The position numbers were made by a program, and so were the translations under genes. This document shows, piece after piece, positions 2,957 to 40,432 of a DNA stretch of 64,000 bases (positions within the stretch are counted from its first letter, which is position 1; every line of letters begins with the position of its first letter). The notes beneath the pieces were generated by a model. The model searched no databases, was not told where the DNA came from, and saw nothing but the letters and a program-made list of their open reading frames with translations. This DNA comes from a virus (taxonomy: Duplodnaviria > Caudoviricetes), in IMG/VR virus record IMGVR_UViG_2602041658_000005, positions 1-64,000 of that record; one strand, written 5' to 3'.

Positions 2957-3658
2957 ATGAAAAGAGTAACGTATAAAACGGAGAAAGAGTTAGAGGCGTT
3001 GAAGTACATCGCTAAATGTTATGACTTCGCCTTAACATTATGTATTACATTAGCATTTAATCAGTTGGACATAACCACAATATCATTGCGAGAGGAAAAG
3101 GACTTCAAGCATGAGCTTAAACACTCGGTTAATAACGCACTAAGCGAAGCTGACAGAAAGCGTGCAGAGATGATGCAGATAATGAAGTCGGGTGGATTCT
3201 TTGAGAGCTATTCAGATACGGTAATAGACTTAGCAGAGAAAGATATTAATGCTTTTAGAAGCTCTTTAGAGCGTGTAATGGAAAAGAACGGCGTAGAAAG
3301 GGCAAAGCTATATGCGCAGGTAGAGACAACGCGGTGCTTGTTAGAATCGTGCGTGATGGACTTTAAAAGTTTGGGCGAGCAATGCAAGGAGAAATTCGGT
3401 TATAACGTATCGTCATTCTTTGAGGAGTTTAACGTATCAAAGGTGGCTTATTGGTTCAGTAGAGCAGTGGATAAGCTGTATAAGGACGTGGACGAGTCTA
3501 ACGGAGAGATAAAGCTAAAGACATCGGCAACATCGAGAATGTGGAACAGAATACATAAGAAGATAGCTGAAGGAGAATATATAGGGGGCTGTTTTGAAGC
3601 AGCGCAGAAAGAACACCCGGAGTTTATGGAGAACGAAGTAAAGGAGGTAGAGGCATGA
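2957..3658 (+). CDS. Hypothetical protein
   Basis: 233-aa ORF, ATGA overlap with next gene. Confidence 0.7.
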   Translation: MKRVTYKTEKELEALKYIAKCYDFALTLCITLAFNQLDITTISLREEKDFKHELKHSVNNALSEADRKRAEMMQIMKSGGFFESYSDTVIDLAEKDINAFRSSLERVMEKNGVERAKLYAQVETTRCLLESCVMDFKSLGEQCKEKFGYNVSSFFEEFNVSKVAYWFSRAVDKLYKDVDESNGEIKLKTSATSRMWNRIHKKIAEGEYIGGCFEAAQKEHPEFMENEVKEVEA

Positions 3659-4359
3659 GTCAGTATGTGAATATAACACCTGAACAGAGGAGATATATAG
3701 TAGAGCATTATGGCAAGGTACCAGTGCTTAAAATGGCAGCAAAATTTGGTGTTTGCGACATGACAATATATCGTATAATAAAAAGTGGAGGAGTAGATAC
3801 AAAAAAGCATTATGTACCTTTACAAAAAGAAGAGATAGAGAAAGTCATAGAGCTATATCCTAATACGCCTAATAAAGAAATAGCAAGGATTATCAACAGG
3901 AAGTTAGGAACGATAAAACATCTCAAGAGGTTGTATGGATTAAAAAAAACACCCGAGTATAAATATTTGGCGAGGATAGATAATTTAAAAAAAGCAGACC
4001 CGGCAAAAGTAAGAATAGCCGCAAAGATAGGATTTCAGAAAAAATATAAGCGAGCAGTCTTCGAGAAGCTATCGGGCATGAAACCGACCACGAAGATGAA
4101 AGTAACTATTTTACCAAAAAGAATATACTCTGTTATGTATAGACTGAGAAGAATTTATAATTACTTTTTAGTAAAAGGAGAACCTTATACGCTCTATTAT
4201 GATAAAGACACGAAAAGATGTAAGAGAGAAGATTATTATTTTAATAAATATCGCATTAAATTTGCGAAGGCAGAAGAGGAAGAAGTAGATATTTGTAATG
4301 AAAAGAAAGAGGAAAGGGGAGGTTTAAAGACGATTAGCCCATTTGTGCTAAAATTTTAA
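3655..4359 (+). CDS. Putative HTH DNA-binding protein
   Basis: Two HTH-like segments (VLKMAAKFGVCDMTIYRII; NKEIARIINRKLGTIK). Confidence 0.6.
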   Translation: MSQYVNITPEQRRYIVEHYGKVPVLKMAAKFGVCDMTIYRIIKSGGVDTKKHYVPLQKEEIEKVIELYPNTPNKEIARIINRKLGTIKHLKRLYGLKKTPEYKYLARIDNLKKADPAKVRIAAKIGFQKKYKRAVFEKLSGMKPTTKMKVTILPKRIYSVMYRLRRIYNYFLVKGEPYTLYYDKDTKRCKREDYYFNKYRIKFAKAEEEEVDICNEKKEERGGLKTISPFVLKF

Positions 4360-13368: not shown

Positions 13369-13379
13369 TTTTGGAAAAT

Positions 13380-13922
13380 ATGAAAATGGATTTGTTAGCA
13401 GGGAGTGGCAATGATGAGTTTTATACACCACCATACGCCATATATCCTATACTAAAATACATTAAACCAAATTCTTCTATTTGGTGTCCGTTTGATAGTG
13501 AAGAAAGTTTCTTTGTTAAGATATTTAGAAGGAAAGGACATAAAGTGTGTTATTCTCATATCAGCAATGGGGAAGATTTCTTCCTTATGAACGTTCCAGA
13601 ATGTGATTACATTATATCAAATTCCCCTTATTCTCTTAAAACAGAAGTACTTAAAAGGCTATTCCAAATAGGTAAACCTTTCGCTATGCTCGTTGGAGTT
13701 GTTGGTATTTTTGAGAGCAAAAAGAGATTTGATTTGTTTCGTTCAAACAAATCTGAGGTTATGTATTTTGATAAGCGCATTTGTTATATGCAAGATTATA
13801 AAGAAAAGAGGGAATCGTTAAATCCCCCATTTAGTAGTGTTTATATATGCTCTAATATACTTCATAAACAGATAGTTTTCGAAGAATTGAACAAAGAAAA
13901 TCAATTAAATTTATTTGTATGA
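13380..13922 (+). CDS. Phage N6-adenine DNA methyltransferase (motif IV reads NSPY)
   Basis: DEFYTP, IWCPFD, DYIISNSPYS, KPFAML. Confidence 0.8.
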   Translation: MKMDLLAGSGNDEFYTPPYAIYPILKYIKPNSSIWCPFDSEESFFVKIFRRKGHKVCYSHISNGEDFFLMNVPECDYIISNSPYSLKTEVLKRLFQIGKPFAMLVGVVGIFESKKRFDLFRSNKSEVMYFDKRICYMQDYKEKRESLNPPFSSVYICSNILHKQIVFEELNKENQLNLFV

Positions 13923-14233
13923 TAAAAGACAAGAAATGCTACATATCTCTGCCAATAACAGGCAGAGACTTAGATGAGGTTGGCGGAAGAATTGCGGAAT
14001 TGAAACGCAAATTGCAAGATAATGGATATATACCTATTTCTCCATTCGATAGAGAGGTTGATTTTAATGCCACGCATGAGGAACACATGAGAGCGGATTT
14101 TAAATTATTGCTCGATTGCGACTACATCCTTATGGGGCGAGAATGGGAATATTCAGTTGGCTGCCGTGCTGAGCTAAACACAGCACTTGCTTGCGGAATG
14201 AAAATAATGTTTGAATTTGCAGAGACAATATGA
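13919..14233 (+). CDS. DUF4406 family (nucleoside deoxyribosyltransferase-like fold)
   Basis: YISLPITG, HMRADFKLLLDCDYI, WEYSVGCRAE. Confidence 0.85.
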   Translation: MIKDKKCYISLPITGRDLDEVGGRIAELKRKLQDNGYIPISPFDREVDFNATHEEHMRADFKLLLDCDYILMGREWEYSVGCRAELNTALACGMKIMFEFAETI

Positions 14234-14409
14234 TTCACGTTAGAGATGGAGAACCATACATCATTTTTAAAGGCAAACCGTTTTACCCCTACGATGGCTT
14301 GTACATAGGCACTTCGGAGAGGTCTTTCAGAGGAGGACTTAGAGACATAAGCAGGTGTATCAAATCCTGCTCACATGACGCAGCGGTAGTAGTCTTGGAA
14401 GACGAATGA
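14230..14409 (+). CDS. Stand-alone TRD-like mini-protein U1 (59 aa)
   Basis: DGLYIGTSERSFRGGLRDISRCIKSCSHDAAVVVLEDE; ATGA-coupled on both sides. Confidence 0.55.
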   Translation: MIHVRDGEPYIIFKGKPFYPYDGLYIGTSERSFRGGLRDISRCIKSCSHDAAVVVLEDE

Positions 14410-14533
14410 GTTTTTTACAACACCAAATCCACACAAGCATTTTGGTAATGTGAAACCGTCTGAATATGTTGCGCCAACTATGCTTGCGACAGATTATAAA
14501 TAACTACCATTGATAATAAAGATAGAAAAATGA
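14406..14533 (+). pseudogene. Disrupted TRD-like mini-ORF U2
   Basis: After a shift at T6 (14411-14416) reads VAPTMLATDYK*LPLIIKIEK; TGA overlaps the MTase ATG. Confidence 0.45.
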
Positions 14534-15273
14534 AATATGACAAAGAGAATCCATTAAAAGTATTCACTGCGTTCAGTGGGTACGATAGTCAATGCCTTGC
14601 ATTGGAAAGATTAAAGAAATATGATAAGGATTTCGAGTATAACCTTGTTGGCTGGTCGGAGATAGATAAGTATGCCATACAAGCGCACAACGTTCTGTTC
14701 CCCCAATACAAAGACAAGAACTTTGGGGATATATCAAAGATAGATTGGACGGAAGTTCCTAATTTTGATTTATTTACGTTCTCGTCGCCCTGTCAAGATT
14801 TCAGCCAAAGCGGTCTGCAACGAGGTGGCGAGGAAGGAAGTGGCACGCGCAGTTCTTTACTATGGGAATGCAGAAAGGCAATTCTCGCAAAGAAGCCAAA
14901 ATACTTGATGCTTGAAAATGTAAAAGCATTGACAAGCAAGAAATTTATGCCATTGTTTCAAAAGTGGCTTGATGAACTTGAGAGTTATGGTTACTCCAAT
15001 TATTGGAAAGTACTCAACGCTACTGATTTTGGTGTGCCACAGAATAGAGAAAGAGTATTTTGCATATCAATATTGAAGACAGAAGATGAGCCAATGCCTA
15101 TATTTCATTTTCCACAACCTTTTCCACTTGAAAAACGATTGAAAGATATTGTTGAGAAAAACGAAGATGGGAGTGCGAAGAAAGTGGATGAGAAATACTA
15201 TCTGTCGGATAAGGCACTTGAGTATTTCAATAGAGTTGATAAAGACAAAACGCATGGTCATAATTTCAAATAA
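14530..15273 (+). CDS. C5-cytosine DNA methyltransferase, N-terminal catalytic part (motifs I-VIII)
   Basis: AFSGYDS, SEID, FGDI, SPCQDFS, LENV, PQNRERVF; motifs IX-X absent. Confidence 0.9.
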   Translation: MKYDKENPLKVFTAFSGYDSQCLALERLKKYDKDFEYNLVGWSEIDKYAIQAHNVLFPQYKDKNFGDISKIDWTEVPNFDLFTFSSPCQDFSQSGLQRGGEEGSGTRSSLLWECRKAILAKKPKYLMLENVKALTSKKFMPLFQKWLDELESYGYSNYWKVLNATDFGVPQNRERVFCISILKTEDEPMPIFHFPQPFPLEKRLKDIVEKNEDGSAKKVDEKYYLSDKALEYFNRVDKDKTHGHNFK

Positions 15274-15356
15274 GGAGGGGTGGAGGGATAGCCTGTACCA
15301 TAAGGTGCAAGGCAGGCAGCCGTGTAGATGACAATTTTGTAATAGATGAAAAATGA
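15270..15356 (+). other. TRD-like module A in the -1 frame directly after the MTase stop
   Basis: IRRGGGIACTIRCKAGSRVDDNFVIDEK*; one extra A at ~15270 would fuse it to the catalytic part. Confidence 0.55.
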
Positions 15357-15510
15357 GATAATAGAAGCCGTCATCATACCGCAAGTAATGAGAGGGGGGG
15401 CAAGCCCAACAATAACGGCGAGTGTAAAGAATATGGGGTGTGCAAATCTTGTTTCGTTAGCGCATTTCCCCATTGCAGGAATTATAGAAATTTATGATAA
15501 AGAAGAATAA
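15346..15510 (+). CDS. TRD-like mini-protein B (54 aa)
   Basis: MKNEIIE...RGGASPTITASVKNMGCAN...AGIIEIYDKEE; G7 run at 15394-15400. Confidence 0.55.
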   Translation: MKNEIIEAVIIPQVMRGGASPTITASVKNMGCANLVSLAHFPIAGIIEIYDKEE

Positions 15511-15670
15511 ATCTTTGTTTGCCATGTTTGAGAAAGGGCTTGTTCCATTAGAGCCATACGTCTGCATAGATACTTACAATCAAAAGGTCATGAGAGATTG
15601 TTTCTGCACAATTCGCACGACCATAAGCAGTTCAAACTTACATTTCATAACAATAATGGAAGATGATTAA
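15494..15670 (+). CDS. TRD-like mini-protein C (58 aa)
   Basis: MIKKNK...CIDTYNQKVMRDCFCTIRTTISSSNLHFITIMEDD. Confidence 0.55.
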   Translation: MIKKNKSLFAMFEKGLVPLEPYVCIDTYNQKVMRDCFCTIRTTISSSNLHFITIMEDD

Positions 15671-15839
15671 ATTTTTGAATCCTTACGAGACTTTCATTCC
15701 ACAAAATAATGCACGTCATGTGTGTGGGCGAATAGAAGTTTGTAGAACTATCAAGGCGCAATACTATAAAGTAGGAAAGGCTAATTTTATTAGGAAAGAC
15801 GGATTGGGAGCGACAGCCGTAATAGAGGTAGAATTATAA
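15663..15839 (+). CDS. TRD-like mini-protein D (58 aa)
   Basis: MIKFLNP...VCRTIKAQYYKVGKANFIRKDGLGATAVIEVEL. Confidence 0.6.
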   Translation: MIKFLNPYETFIPQNNARHVCGRIEVCRTIKAQYYKVGKANFIRKDGLGATAVIEVEL

Positions 15840-15853
15840 TTTGCTGTAAGTTT

Positions 15854-16012
15854 ATGATAGAAGATGTTTTTGTAATCAATGGCTATAAGAGAAATGACAA
15901 GGAGGTATCATCCACTATTCGTGGAGTATATGGTAAGTGTGGAGGTGGCAGTGTTTTTCTCAATACAGGACATGGGATAACGGGAATAGTAGAAGTGTAT
16001 GAATCGGAATAA
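15854..16012 (+). CDS. TRD-like mini-protein E (52 aa)
   Basis: MIEDVFVING...VSSTIRGVYGKCGGGSVFLNTGHGITGIVEVYESE. Confidence 0.55.
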   Translation: MIEDVFVINGYKRNDKEVSSTIRGVYGKCGGGSVFLNTGHGITGIVEVYESE

Positions 16013-16165
16013 AAAAAAATAATTCAGTTGTTCAACATTCTACCACCATCTACGAATTTCCAGAACGGACAGAGAGGCAGGGTTTACAGCGTGATGGGGG
16101 TAAGTCCTACCATTGATGCGATGCAGGGTGGAAATCTGCAACCGAAAATAGTAGTGATAGAGTGA
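15999..16165 (+). pseudogene. TRD-like mini-ORF F, out of frame at an A9 run (16011-16019)
   Basis: MNRNKKK*; shifted frame IIQLFNIL...QRGRVYSVMGVSPTIDAMQGGNLQPKIVVIE*. Confidence 0.6.
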
Positions 16166-16830
16166 TGAAATATTTAGTATGTGCAAGTAGGGGGAGAAAA
16201 ACCGACAATCCGAGTGAGCGAGGGAAGTCGCTCGGTAGATATAAACAAAGATTACAGGTTAATTTAAGAGAGGTATTAAACACGATAACGAGCATTCAGA
16301 AAGACTATTTGATGATGGAAATATATGAACCGATGTGCTTGTCTTTGTATCGGACGGACTATGGGAAAAAAGTTTGGAACGAATATGAGAAGAGACACAA
16401 TATAAAAATGAATCGGAAAACTATGTTGTGTCTATTACCAAGGCACGATGGTCTATTTAGAACTATAACAACATTACAAAGTGATATACAAATTATGGAA
16501 TCAAGTAACAATAAAGGCAAGTTGATAACAGAAGAGGTGGCAGTGAAGTTAAAGCTACCGAAAGAGTATATTGGCAAATGTTTTAGGATAAGGAAACTGA
16601 CACCAAGAGAGTGCTTTCGCCTTATGGACATGGAAGAAGAAAAAATAGACAAAGTGCTGAATGCCAAGAATGAGAAAGGACAGCAGCTTATATCCAATTC
16701 TCAACTTTACAAATTAGCTGGCAATAGCATAGTCGTGAGTTGTATGGAATATATGTTTAGGAACTTGTTTATTGGTGTTCCCGAAGATGAGAAAGGAAAA
16801 CAAGAGCCAGTGCAATTAAAATTATTTTAG
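16165..16830 (+). CDS. C5-cytosine methyltransferase C-terminal part (two TRD-like modules + motifs IX-X)
   Basis: SRGR...NTITSIQKD; RTDYGK...RTITTLQSD; RKLTPRECFRLM; LYKLAGNSIVV. Confidence 0.85.
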   Translation: MKYLVCASRGRKTDNPSERGKSLGRYKQRLQVNLREVLNTITSIQKDYLMMEIYEPMCLSLYRTDYGKKVWNEYEKRHNIKMNRKTMLCLLPRHDGLFRTITTLQSDIQIMESSNNKGKLITEEVAVKLKLPKEYIGKCFRIRKLTPRECFRLMDMEEEKIDKVLNAKNEKGQQLISNSQLYKLAGNSIVVSCMEYMFRNLFIGVPEDEKGKQEPVQLKLF

Positions 16831-16959
16831 ATGAAATACTTAGGAAGCAAGCGCAGAATAGCGAAAGACATTTTGCCTATCATTCTTGATGGAATGAGAG
16901 AGGGAGATTATTTCATAGACGCCTTTTGCGGTGGTTGTAATCTGTTGGATAATAAATAA
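16831..16959 (+). pseudogene. N-terminal fragment of a Dam/D12-class adenine methyltransferase
   Basis: MKYLGSKRRIAKDILPII...FIDAFCGGCNLLDNK* (motifs X and I only). Confidence 0.75.
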
Positions 16960-16970
16960 ACTTTACTCAA

Positions 16971-17663
16971 ATGAAAGAGATTTTTACTATTAATTCAAAA
17001 AGGTGGCTTTCTTTAAGGAATTACGAAGGAGAGGTATGGAAGCCTGTTGTTGGATATGAAAATTGCTACGAAGTAAGTAATTTTGGTAGAATTAAAAGTA
17101 TAGCACGTTTTGTAAAATGTAAAGATGGCAAAATTCAGCGATACAATGAAAAAATACTTCGTTTATGGATAGCAAAATTAGGCTACGCATCAATAACGCT
17201 TGAACATTATGGAGAAACGAGGAAAGTTGGAGCGCACAGGATAGTTGCAGAGGCTTTTCTCCCAAACCCAAAAGGATTACCGCAAGTTAATCACAAAGAC
17301 GAAAATCCTACAAATAATAAATTAAACAACTTAGAATGGTGCACGGCAAAATACAATTTGACTTACGGAAGCAGGTTACAACGATTACACCTATCAACGA
17401 TAAATAATCCGAAAACCTCAAAGATAGTCCAGCAGTATTCATTTGATGGAGAGTTGATTTGCGAATATCCTTCATTGATGGAGACAAGAAGACTTTTCGG
17501 AGGGCATGTAGGTGAAGTCTGTAATCATAAATACTACAGTACATTAGGTTATTTTTGGCTGTATAAAGGTATTAGTTTTGAAGAATGGCAGAAAAAGCAT
17601 GAAGAAATTTTCAGAGAAAGAAGGCGTAATAAGCCAAGAAGAATTATAACTACCAAACGATAA
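16971..17663 (+). CDS. NUMOD4-HNH homing endonuclease with NUMOD1-like tail
   Basis: EVWKPVVGYENCYEVSNFGRIKS; HRIVAEAF; VNHKDENPTNNKLNNLEW. Confidence 0.9.
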   Translation: MKEIFTINSKRWLSLRNYEGEVWKPVVGYENCYEVSNFGRIKSIARFVKCKDGKIQRYNEKILRLWIAKLGYASITLEHYGETRKVGAHRIVAEAFLPNPKGLPQVNHKDENPTNNKLNNLEWCTAKYNLTYGSRLQRLHLSTINNPKTSKIVQQYSFDGELICEYPSLMETRRLFGGHVGEVCNHKYYSTLGYFWLYKGISFEEWQKKHEEIFRERRRNKPRRIITTKR

Positions 17664-17700
17664 CGAAGAAACCTATTGAAAAACTATTTATGCTATAATT

Positions 17701-17826
17701 ATGGAAAACAAACTTGACAGGGTCGCTTCTGAGTGGACAAAGAAACACCCGAAAGCGACACTTGAAGAAGCGTTCAAGGCGGGATATTTAAGGCATGTTG
17801 AAGCGTGGGTAAAGAACGAAAGATAA
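17701..17826 (+). CDS. 41-aa hypothetical protein (MENKLDRVASEW...)
   Basis: Fills gap before MTase; EEAFKAGY motif. Confidence 0.5.
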   Translation: MENKLDRVASEWTKKHPKATLEEAFKAGYLRHVEAWVKNER

Positions 17827-17828
17827 GA

Positions 17829-18602
17829 ATGATAGAAGAGAACAAACTATATCACGGTGATTGCTTTCGCCTTATGCAGGACATTCCAGACAAGTCTATT
17901 GACATGATACTATCCGACCCACCCTACGCTTGTCTTAACAAATCTAATAAGGATGCAAGTTGGGACAAGGAGATAGACCTACAAGAGTTGTGGAAACAGT
18001 ATGAGCGCATTATAAAAGACAATGGAGCAATATTATTGTTTGGACAAGGCTTGTTTGCAGGCAAGCTCATTATGAGTAACCCGAAGCTATATAGATACGA
18101 CCTTGTGTGGGACAAGGTTAGGAAGGTGGGCTTTCTCAACGCGAAGAGAATGCCGTTAAGACAGCATGAGCAAATACTTGTATTCTATAAAAAACTGCCT
18201 ACATACAATCCTCAAATGGTGAAGTGCGAGCCGCACCAACGCAACCACAGCAGAGGAAGCGGCAACGAAACAAATAGAACCTATGGGAATTATGGTAAGT
18301 CGGAAAGGATTATTACAGACGAGAAATATCCAAGCAGCATTATAACGTTTCCGAAAGGTAGTAAGGACGATTGGCTACACCCTACGGCAAAGCCAATAGA
18401 ATTGCTTAGGTACCTTATTCGCACCTATTCTAACGAGGGCGATTTGGTGTTAGACAACTTTGCAGGTAGCGGCTCAACGTGTGTAGCTGCCATAAAGGAA
18501 AACCGTAAGTTTATCGGAATGGAAATGGAATACCACTTCTTTAAGGTGGCAGATGAGAGAATAAAAAACGAATTGAGAGAACCAAAATTATTTTATAAAT
18601 AA
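17829..18602 (+). CDS. N4-cytosine/N6-adenine DNA methyltransferase (beta class)
   Basis: IDMILSDPPY, HPTAKP, VLDNFAGSGST. Confidence 0.92.
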   Translation: MIEENKLYHGDCFRLMQDIPDKSIDMILSDPPYACLNKSNKDASWDKEIDLQELWKQYERIIKDNGAILLFGQGLFAGKLIMSNPKLYRYDLVWDKVRKVGFLNAKRMPLRQHEQILVFYKKLPTYNPQMVKCEPHQRNHSRGSGNETNRTYGNYGKSERIITDEKYPSSIITFPKGSKDDWLHPTAKPIELLRYLIRTYSNEGDLVLDNFAGSGSTCVAAIKENRKFIGMEMEYHFFKVADERIKNELREPKLFYK

Positions 18603-38591: not shown

Positions 38592-39136
38592 AACTTAAAA
38601 GTTTTTTAATTTGTTATTATTGTTATTATTATTATTGTGTGGGGGGCTTATTTTCCAAAGGTACTCCCACGTGTTTTTGTTTTTGCTTATTATTTTATTT
38701 CAGATGCACAAACAAGCAAACAAACTAACATCAATTAATTAGATTTATATATTTAAGAATCTTTTTTTTGTCTTATTTTTCAAAAACAAAAAAAAACAAA
38801 TAAAACTACATTAACCACTTGATATATTGCAAGTTAATTATATCAAGTAATTAAGCAGGATCCACGCCTTCCTCCGGTCGTGTGCATGAAAGTAAGACAA
38901 AGATTTTTTAAAAGTTTGCAAAGTAAAAATTTTATTTATATCTTTGCACCGATTTTGTGAATCAAGCAAAAATATTTTTTATTTTTGAGTAGCTAAAAAA
39001 ACTTGCAAGGTTATATTTTTAGCTACTTTTTTTTGCTTTCAAATTTTCAAAAAGTAAAACAGTTAGTAGCTTTATTACATTGTTGTTATTGCTACTGTCT
39101 GTAAAAGTAACCGCCGTTATCTTTTTTAATTACATA

Positions 39137-39500: not shown

Positions 39501-40432
39501 TGTAATTAAGGCAATAAGAGAGTCAGGAGGGAGGCGATTCTTAATAGTTTGAGAGTGTAAGAGAGGAGGTTATATTTTCGTTGTAAGTTGTTGTTTATCA
39601 ATAAGATAGGTTATACAAATAATGTATCTTTTTTTTTTAGTAGTAAGGGGGGGGTAACCCCTTAATGAAAGCAAAGAGTCCCTATTTGATTACCGGTCTA
39701 AATTTTTTATTTTTTTTTTTTGTTTTTGGGGTTGTCTATTGTTTAGGGTATTGGTTTAGTATTGGTTTAGTGTGTGTTAAGGGTGCATTGAGTGTATATG
39801 TAGAGCGTATGTGTAGAGTGTTAAAATGACGTTAAAAAAGTCATGTTTTTATGTTTTTGGGTCTTGTATGGACTATTTTGTCATTTTATTTGACAATTTA
39901 TTTTTATTTTTCGAGATTTTTGTTTAATCTTTTCAAAGTCTTTATTATAAAGGGTATCTTTGCATTGTTAGTGGACATATTTCTTAATTATTACCTATTT
40001 TAGGGTATCTATATAGGATATTTATATATATATTATATATATTTACTAATAAACGCGAGGAGATGAGTTTTAGAGAGTGTATTTTAGCGAAATTAGCGCG
40101 ATATAGCGAAAAAATAGCGATAGATAAGAGAATGTGCCAAAATGGATAGAAAGTGCTTTAAAACGCACGTAAAACAGATTTGAGCAAACATAATGTATGC
40201 GAGTAAGGAAGTTGTTTGTATTTTTAAGGTAAAGGTTTGCTGCTGTTTTTTTGCGAAAGATAGGTATTGTAGCTATCTTAGCAAACAGAGAAAGAGAAAA
40301 AAGGAAAAGAAAAAAAATAAAAAAAGAAAAGGAAATAAGAGAAAGACGAAAGACGAGTGAGAGAGAGAAAAAAAGGACGAGAAAGAAACCGTAAGAGGGA
40401 AACAAGGAATTGGATAGAGATAAGGAGAGTTT

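Follow-up and report, generated by a model that had tools for sequence, protein, structure and literature searches.

A fragmented, probably multispecific C5 cytosine methyltransferase operon in a phage, with mini-genes for candidate trans-acting target recognition domains

The window analysed here, 64,000 nucleotides (nt) from a 79-kb provirus record of IMG/VR, carries on its + strand, amid tightly packed rightward genes, a C5 cytosine methyltransferase that is encoded in pieces (Table 1). The C5 motifs I, IV (PC), VI (ENV), VIII (QxRxR), IX and X are all visible in the translations, and, as an initial annotation made from the sequence alone had proposed, they are divided between two open reading frames (ORFs), an N-half that matches Pfam PF00145 over profile positions 5-222 of 324 (E 1.4e-54) and a C-half that matches positions 193-322 (E 8e-7). 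The usual one-polypeptide form of such enzymes is interrupted by the stop codon at 15271-15273, at which the N-half protein ends in …HGHNFK*, and by 892 nt and several reading frames between motifs I-VIII and IX-X. The motif order is normal, with IX-X after I-VIII, and is not circularly permuted. For the C-half, a start at ATG 16165 is more likely than one at GTG 16162. Ten modules resembling target recognition domains (TRDs) belong to the locus: six (M1 to M6) lie between the halves, two (C1 and C2) inside the C-half and two (M0a and M0b) upstream of the N-half. They are not arrayed in a single polypeptide, as TRDs can be elsewhere, but form separate ORFs in three frames, and every mini-ORF and every core sequence listed initially was found in the translations. 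Comparison of the N-half with the TRD set (BLAST, E≤1e-3) detected no TRD module past the linker that follows motif VIII, and a consensus scan of the array for internal terminators or promoters gave none beyond shuffled expectation.

Table 1. Parts of the split methyltransferase, their state in the window and in relatives (L113 and L114, close relatives among metagenome contigs; X2 and X3, contigs of sequencing runs), and the ratio of nonsynonymous to synonymous differences per site (pN/pS). aa, amino acids.
Feature	Coordinates	Strand	Description	State	pN/pS vs L114 / vs L113
M0a	14230..14409	+	59-aa stand-alone TRD mini-gene; core ISRCIKS; tail VVVLEDE	window ON; L113 frameshifted; L114 ON	0.19 / 0.31
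M0b	14402..14533	+	dead TRD module; core VAPTMLA; tail LPLIIKIEK	window dead (ATG to ACG, TCA to TAA); L113 intact; L114 intact	0.31 / 0.07
N-half of C5 methyltransferase	14530..15273	+	247 aa; motifs I-VIII (FSGYDS, SPCQDFS, ENV, QNRER)		0.07 / 0.08
M1	15264..15357	+	first TRD module; core IACTIRC; -1 frame relative to N-half; without start codon		0.36 / 0.27 (rests on 7-9 changes, not decisive)
M2	15346..15510	+	54-aa TRD mini-gene; core ASPTITA; tail IIEIYD; G7 run 15394-15400, in frame	window ON (G7); L113 OFF (G8); L114 ON (G7); X2 OFF (one base fewer); X3 OFF (four fewer)	0.10 / 0.15
M3	15494..15670	+	58-aa TRD mini-gene; core CFCTIRT; ATG within M2 tail codons		
M4	15663..15839	+	58-aa TRD mini-gene; core VCRTIKA; tail VIEVEL		
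M5	15854..16012	+	52-aa TRD mini-gene; core VSSTIRG; tail IVEVYESE		0.34 / 0.33
M6	15999..16165	+	TRD mini-gene; core VSPTIDA; tail IVVIE; A9 run 16011-16019 after ATG 15999	window OFF (A9); L113 premature stop; L114 ON; X3 two fewer A	0.28 / 0.09
C-half	16165..16830	+	221 aa; TRD C1 (VLNTITS), TRD C2 (LFRTITT), motif IX (RIRKLTPRECFRLM), motif X (GNSIVV)	C1: window ON; L113 ON; L114 frameshifted	IX-X part 0.11 / 0.13

The pieces interlock at their ends. An ATGA at 14230 sets the ATG of M0a over the stop of the upstream DUF4406 gene, and another at 14530 sets the ATG of the N-half over the M0b stop (TGA 14531-14533). The M2 ATG at 15346 overlaps the M1 stop (15355-15357) by 12 nt, the overlaps with the previous module amount to 17 nt at 15494 (M3), 8 nt at 15663 (M4) and 14 nt at 15999 (M6), and the C-half ATG overlaps the M6 stop as TGATG; the sole gap in the module string is the 14 nt before the M5 ATG at 15854. 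The claim that most starts overlap the end of the preceding module holds. Among mini-ORF matches of the window modules in related loci, 41 of 51 have an in-frame ATG upstream of the match, and in 29 of the 51 this ATG lies within 6 codons of the upstream in-frame stop, compared with 1126 of 9384 stop-to-stop segments (12%) in the same loci, which served as background (binomial p 2e-14, the 51 matches not all being independent). Breaks that fall at module boundaries with a fresh ATG are thus commoner than random expectation, as had been suspected. In the broader survey described below, 101 of 139 mini-ORFs have an in-frame ATG, which is within 6 codons of a stop in 76 of the 139. For 54 of the 101 ATG mini-ORFs the junction could be scored, in that a neighbouring methyltransferase-part ORF ended between -40 and +60 nt of the ATG; the ATG lies upstream of the stop of the previous part in 40 of these 54, with peaks at 4, 8, 11, 14 and 23 nt. 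An alternative genetic code was considered and rejected: each junction brings a change of frame and ORFs end at TAA, TGA and TAG alike, so no stop reassignment yields one chain. We note separately that the 26-nt junctions ahead of the N-half (14513-14538) and the C-half (16148-16173) are 77% alike, each comprising a tail …I-x-I-E, a stop and ATGAAATAT, and that MKY is the start of both halves and of the next gene (16830-16843).

Nine of the ten window modules match TRD regions of relatives (tblastn, E≤1e-3), and homologues of the tenth, M5, occur in L113 and L114. Single-chain multispecific relatives have TRDs homologous to the window modules; the last TRD of the single-chain loci L006/L023, for instance, is a homologue of M0a. 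The monospecific relative L097 has an M4-type module as its sole TRD, and in L112 this type of TRD is naturally fused in cis. When an M6-type profile was compared with the PDB, its ten best matches, which were weak (E 0.13), fell on M.HhaI 237-257, which we take to be the stretch holding the Thr-Leu recognition loop. A PDB profile search with an M4-type alignment returned chance matches only (E≥1), a PDB search with the single M6 sequence gave no match and the ESM Atlas gave no usable match.

The divided layout is shared by relatives. Two close relatives among metagenome contigs, L113 (~90% nt identity) and L114 (~87%), with 87-92% across the region of the N-half, have the N-half stop and an M1 that lacks an ATG and lies in the -1 frame, and in both M0a/M0b, M2, M5 and M6 start at an ATG, with M5 an intact ATG ORF in each; the module described initially as lying in the -1 frame after the catalytic stop is therefore present and kept in both. 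Logan contigs of three more runs (X2, X3 and X10; contigs, not reads) carry the same pieces at 90-95% identity. Another run, X1, is identical to the window, may be its source and so is not independent. Coverage of L113 is only 2.4x, so its indels may be errors; the depth of X3 is 74. We rejected private lesions and assembly errors as the origin of the breaks, since the same breaks recur in L113, L114, X2, X3, X10 and many distant loci, and the modules lack long repeats able to cause misassembly; close relatives with one continuous ORF, which the initial annotation had foreseen as the outcome that would count against it, were not what L113 and L114 proved to be.

Breaks are shared across relatives from ~92% down to 37% N-half identity, and strings of TRD mini-ORFs in changing frames were found in the distant loci L003 (a lineage of visibly different composition), L005, L007, L008, L086, L093, L096, L099, L101, L105, L110, L111 and others. 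The N-half as query in viral contigs gave 41 loci, made up of 20 single chains (356-710 aa), 14 split genes and 7 without IX-X downstream of the N-half, these motifs being fused upstream in 4 of the 7 and undetected in 3; the C-half as query in viral contigs found nothing. In a survey of 108 loci (after removal of 5 duplicate contigs and before L113-L115 were added), sorted by simple motif patterns into classes that are approximate, 53 consist of a single ORF without mini-ORFs, 29 combine a split gene with mini-ORFs, 9 add mini-ORFs to a full or permuted ORF, 7 are two-part splits and 10 are incomplete or of other types. TRD mini-ORFs occur in 38 of the 108 loci (139 in total), at least two of them in 28 loci, and none was seen beside the 53 single-ORF loci, including the most distant single-chain relatives in genome contigs. 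The layout recurs in many gut and rumen phages, and the hosts named in genome records are Bacteroidales metagenome-assembled genomes (Alistipes, Muribaculaceae, Porphyromonadaceae and Paludibacteraceae) and some Firmicutes. Among cultured phages, a tblastn search of 50,697 phage records with M4 gave no match, blastn of the region gave 5 weak matches only, and the N-half matched 37 records, all below 60% identity, one of which, Bacillus phage BMBphi, has an ordinary 340-aa gene.

A single-chain ancestor is plausible because 53 of the 108 loci have one continuous ORF, and one explanation for the locus is decay, in which a single-chain multispecific gene is undergoing pseudogenisation and the mini-ORFs are its non-functional leftovers. 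The dead (M0b), OFF (M6) and ATG-less (M1) modules of the window and the other modules broken in L113 and in L114 would fit such a history, but debris would be expected neither to share its breaks over so wide a range of relatives, nor to be enriched for ATG starts, nor to overlap the previous stop at 40 of 54 junctions, and the homologues and substitution patterns given next make decay an unlikely explanation.

Short homologues number in the hundreds. When M4 was searched exhaustively against 1.84 billion representatives with phmmer, 30 matches were obtained at E≤1e-3, of which 23 are 39-98 aa long, 2 are two-module proteins (113-122 aa) and 5 measure 203-415 aa, namely three C-halves (203-212 aa), one multi-TRD chain ending in IX-X (415 aa) and one TRD-only protein (338 aa); motifs I-VIII are present in none of the 30. 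The short M4 homologues share their start and the core '…LNP…GG.CRTIKAQY.K.S.ANF.R.DGLGATAVIE.E', and end directly after the tail. The M4 type of TRD occurs in 29 viral loci, as a stand-alone ORF in 17, in a full single chain in 6, with an N-half in 1, with a C-half in 3, in a larger TRD-only ORF in 1 and in a permuted chain in 1. An M6-type profile matched 564 of 639 short candidates (24-84 aa, E≤1e-3); at least 46 of the 120 matches listed lie on contigs of at least 10 kb and so are not contig-end fragments. These M6-type matches are unnamed, called 'hypothetical protein' or, in three cases, 'DNA (cytosine-5)-methyltransferase 1'. A 97-aa two-module member is present on 51 contigs; one cluster of homologues held an unrelated 391-aa protein, which was disregarded. 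Close homologues of M6 include seven stand-alone proteins of 52-54 aa, one of them, a near-identical module, named 'hypothetical protein [Prevotella disiens]', and four short homologues of M3 are 81-98% identical to it.

Selection acts on these peptides. Across the 26 codons of seven stand-alone M4 cores, differences at codon positions 1/2/3 are 0.21/0.18/0.64, with a mean pS of 0.85 and a mean pN of 0.19, so the stand-alone copies keep their protein sequence although their synonymous sites are saturated. Between the window and L113 or L114, pN/pS in the annotated frames lies between 0.07 and 0.36, and off-frame values are mostly 0.4-4; the comparison of substitution rates that had been suggested as a check thus indicates purifying selection.

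Close relatives differ from the window by whole modules. In X3 the interval 15498-15851 (M3 and M4) is absent, with 5 other letters in its place, and it is replaced by 146 other letters in X10 and 177 in X2, which also has 285 extra letters at 16002-16015. The C-half TRDs (16222-16509) are swapped for ~280 other letters in X3 and X10, and the TRD part of the C-half is also replaced in L113 and L114. In both of these contigs similarity to the window is lost at 15497/15498, directly after the M3 ATG, and L114 has one different 46-aa module at the M3/M4 site and, between M5 and M6, an additional one of 50 aa; M3 is missing or replaced in X2, X3, X10, L113 and L114 alike. Changes start at 15497/15498, just behind an ATG; modules are thus exchanged as units at the overlap junctions, and the variable module sets that the initial annotation expected in relatives take the form of whole cassettes swapped at junction ATGs. 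An invertible shufflon was rejected, since the array has no significant inverted repeats. As a further observation, the 39-aa homologue P0025 consists of the first 16 residues of an M0a-type module and the last 23 of M4, joined in some relative by recombination or by a deletion between modules.

These exchanges would also suit a silent cassette store, in which the enzyme uses only TRDs in cis, the mini-ORFs are a stock of sequence for recombination into the expressed halves and the junction sequence is a recombination signal. The swaps at junctions, the P0025 chimera and the replaced C-half TRD parts of X3, X10, L113 and L114 are what such a store would produce. Silent cassettes need neither an ATG nor a stop-start overlap, however, and the junctions share little besides that overlap; the array is without inverted repeats or long direct repeats, no recombinase gene was seen adjoining it, in an inspection that included no search aimed at one, and the TRD-less cores of L093 and L110, described below, would be inactive. 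We therefore regard a store of this kind as improbable.

Single modules also differ in whether they are in frame. Five mini-TRDs (M0a and M2 to M5) and the two C-half TRDs look ON in the window, M0b is dead, M6 is OFF and M1 is probably dead or OFF. The frame of M6 is broken by its A9 run, as had been noted, and A7 or A10 would restore it; the N-terminus of the Prevotella disiens homologue is that which A7 would yield, and an A7-type start was found in P0066. The M2 G7 run is one of only two G runs of at least 7 in the window, the other being a G8 at 39647. The lengths of the M2 G run and the M6 A run, both of which set the frame, differ among relatives, which agrees with phase variation and with the switching by homopolymer slippage proposed initially. 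The T6 run of M0b does not belong with them, although it had been named as the break in that module: M0b is an intact 43-aa ATG ORF with an identical T6 in L113 and L114, and the lesions responsible are the start codon that is now ACG (14402-14404) and the TCA codon that is now TAA (14501-14503), ahead of the tail.

A second class of repeats lies at the N-half/M1 junction of relatives. L007 has an A9 (4020-4030) and its close relative L008 an A8 (2481-2489), neither in frame; L089 (~3375-3405) and L095 (~3360-3395) have (GA)n, L111 has a G9 (~3391-3400) and L103 has (GACA)n (~3380-3405). Counting these six, ten loci have an M1 whose frame differs from that of the N-half, the others being L043, the window, L113 and L114. 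No junction repeat was found within 110 nt in 29 loci, two of them long ORFs mislabelled by the motif test, in which motifs I-VIII continue in frame into an M1-type module. The contrast between 5 of 10 and 0 of 29 loci gives a Fisher p of 4e-4, the rows not being independent lineages; L103 was seen afterwards and raises the first figure to 6 of 10. Four repeat types at one linker suggest that switchability is selected, or that an N-half-M1 fusion is expressed by slippage.

Homopolymer and simple-repeat tracts are known slippage sites, and modules might accordingly be fused by ribosomal frameshifting or transcriptional slippage, as from the N-half into M1, and no free mini-proteins be made. Such recoding would account for an M1 that is ATG-less and in the -1 frame in the window, L113, L114, L007, L089 and L111, and for the repeats placed exactly at this junction. 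Against it, the window junction has no repeat and no canonical slippery heptamer, the stretch 15259-15275 is free of slippery tracts, and L114 has AAG at this site in place of AAA; the other junction ATGs come 0-2 codons after an in-frame stop, which leaves hardly any room for a shift, and five or more successive shifts would give negligible product. Recoding has little probability.

Some relatives have catalytic cores without any TRD. In L093 (3799-5340) and L110 (3819-4967) one ORF with the permuted order IX-X-I-VIII is flanked by ATG mini-TRD ORFs, and a BLAST search of these cores with the TRD set (E≤1e-3) matched the conserved post-VIII linker only. Permuted order was seen only in relatives (L026, L028, L029, L034, L053, L093, L110 and L112). 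In L004 a 73-aa ORF (3777-3998) has motifs IX-X only and overlaps with the beginning of the N-half, which measures 245 aa; another ORF, downstream, holds the TRDs. DNA recognition at L093, L110 and L004 is to be expected only if TRDs act in trans or are joined to the core in some other way, and the TRD-less loci are to our mind the strongest indirect argument for action in trans. The ends of the mini-TRDs are alike within a locus and unlike between loci (…YET in L099, …YEE in L086, …IE(I/V)(Y/E)(D/E) in the window), and are nearly uniform in L093 (…LIEYEL, …LIEYEI, …LIEYE and …FIEYDE). An insert of ~100 aa separates motif IX from motif X in the L093 core.

The mini-TRDs could instead be made and yet serve in another role, as regulators or competitors of the methyltransferase, as DNA-binding proteins or as anti-restriction factors. 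Selection at the peptide level is shown by the data above, which is not the same as function; the ends are acidic and AlphaFold2 found no autonomous fold. The TRD core is nevertheless kept as in single chains of active type, including the sole TRD of L097, and mini-TRDs lie only beside split or TRD-poor cores and at none of the 53 single-ORF loci. Another role thus seems very unlikely.

We propose, as the more probable interpretation of the locus, a fragmented multispecific phage C5 cytosine methyltransferase operon whose mini-TRDs dock in trans. A single rightward transcript would encode the N-half, for S-adenosylmethionine binding and catalysis, the C-half and a string of TRD genes of 45-60 aa, each started at its own ATG through coupled termination and reinitiation. 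The two halves would associate as in two-chain C5 methyltransferases, and a mini-TRD would dock at the TRD position, its C-terminal hydrophobic-acidic strand probably pairing with the strand before motif IX. One core could then give several holoenzymes, each with a different methylation target, and protect the phage DNA against several host restriction systems. The module set would turn over fast through cassette exchange at the conserved overlap junctions, and single modules would be toggled by homopolymer indels, loss of start codons or nonsense mutations. The gene structure, its conservation, the selection on modules, the exchange of cassettes and the differences in tract length are observed; we infer that the mini-ORFs are translated, that their products assemble in trans through a docking strand and what biological purpose this serves, and consider trans-acting specificity subunits plausible.

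Several points weigh against this proposal. AlphaFold2 gave the M4 mini-protein (20 sequences) a predicted local distance difference test (pLDDT) score of 49.1 and no confident fold, and in the natural TRD-IX-X-I-VIII chain of L112 (8 sequences) the core was good and residues 1-44 scored below 50. The same bases (…TATGAAGAA…) are read both as the tail 'Y-E/D-E/K' and as the next start 'M-K/I-K', so that the tail motif may reflect the overlap and is by itself no proof of a docking surface. In the window, where M1 lacks a start codon and 72 nt separate the N-half stop from the next ATG, translation may be only weakly coupled into the array. Several modules are broken in the window and its relatives, which fits ongoing decay of dispensable parts, and the loci surveyed are not phylogenetically independent.

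The nearest known systems share parts of the layout. In the multispecific C5 methyltransferases of temperate Bacillus phages of the SPR, phi3T and rho11s type, several tandem TRDs of ~40-60 aa lie between motifs VIII and IX and help the phage evade many restriction systems. All TRDs of these enzymes are in one polypeptide (excerpt of PMC12707154). The single-chain relatives of our locus (356-710 aa) have this layout with homologous modules, whereas most window TRDs have an ORF and an ATG to themselves, in other frames. M.AquI comprises one chain with motifs I-VIII and another with part of the variable region and IX-X, and in M.EcoHK31I a small beta polypeptide supplies the motif IX that is missing from alpha (both from excerpts of PMC3404938). 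The division of the gene into N-half and C-half matches that of M.AquI, but M.AquI has two chains and one specificity and the window halves are surrounded by up to eight further TRD ORFs; M.EcoHK31I has its TRD on the large chain, unlike the window, where the small proteins are TRDs. Fragments of split M.HhaI, M.BspRI, M.BsuRI and M.SssI associate in vivo (excerpts of PMC3404938). Natural permuted C5 enzymes of the order TRD-IX-X-I-VIII (M.BssHII type) are termed 'type H' in excerpts of PMC5944983; L026, L029 and L112 have this order, in contrast to the window, and the permuted TRD-less cores of L093 and L110 are a form absent from the types described in those excerpts. In Type I HsdS systems and phasevarions an exchangeable subunit of its own carries the specificity, and expression is switched by simple repeats (excerpts of PMC12707154); these are amino-methyltransferases with the HsdS fold and no sequence relation, so that the likeness is one of analogy only. 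Stand-alone TRD genes of C5 methyltransferases were not found in full-text searches of the literature, older subscription papers (such as those of the 1980s-90s on the Bacillus phage enzymes) and supplements lying outside the scope of that search.

More tentatively, it is possible that there is a class of C5 methyltransferases with dissociable TRD subunits of ~50 aa that dock on a TRD-less one- or two-chain core, and that phages keep libraries of these subunits subject to cassette exchange and repeat switching. If so, it would be the C5 counterpart of the Type I specificity subunit and a modular route to enzymes with chosen 5-methylcytosine targets, and the locus would be a phage counter-defence locus that combines cassette turnover with repeat-based switching. 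Phages of Bacteroidales and of other gut and rumen bacteria might then release mixed progeny that differ in methylation pattern, as a hedge against both methylation-sensitive and methylation-dependent restriction. The mini-TRDs would amount to a large family of small proteins in phages, un-annotated or called 'hypothetical', of which one module type alone gave the 564 short matches above; gene callers and annotators now miss the mini-TRD genes or read them as pseudogene debris. We know of no structure of a multispecific C5 methyltransferase. How one catalytic core uses many TRDs is structurally unclear, and free 50-aa TRDs would make the question testable.

Other DNA-modification genes surround the split C5 enzyme (13371-14233 and 17805-18602). 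The upstream interval holds a weak Dam/EcoRI-methylase-like ORF (E ~4e-4, under the Pfam cut-off) and the DUF4406 (nucleoside deoxyribosyltransferase-like) gene, and the downstream one an N6_N4 methylase (E 6e-34). Directly after the C-half, 16831-17698 contains a 42-aa stub of a D12-class adenine methylase (Pfam E 7.5e-4) followed by an HNH/NUMOD4 endonuclease gene (16971-17663). The D12 methylase is an intact 240-aa ORF in L113, with which window similarity ends at 16952 and restarts at 17652, so the HNH gene replaces the core of this methylase in the window. Among the relatives, L035, L036/L108, L088, L096 and L098 have N-half ORFs of ~600-672 aa whose match to the query is split at residue 88 by an in-frame insert of ~1 kb; this ends in …HNC just ahead of the motif IV Cys and looks like an intein at the catalytic cysteine. 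Elsewhere in the window long homopolymers are clustered at 38762-38797 (T8 at 38762 and A9 at 38788) and at 39629-39720 (T10 at 39629, the G8 mentioned above and T12 at 39710).

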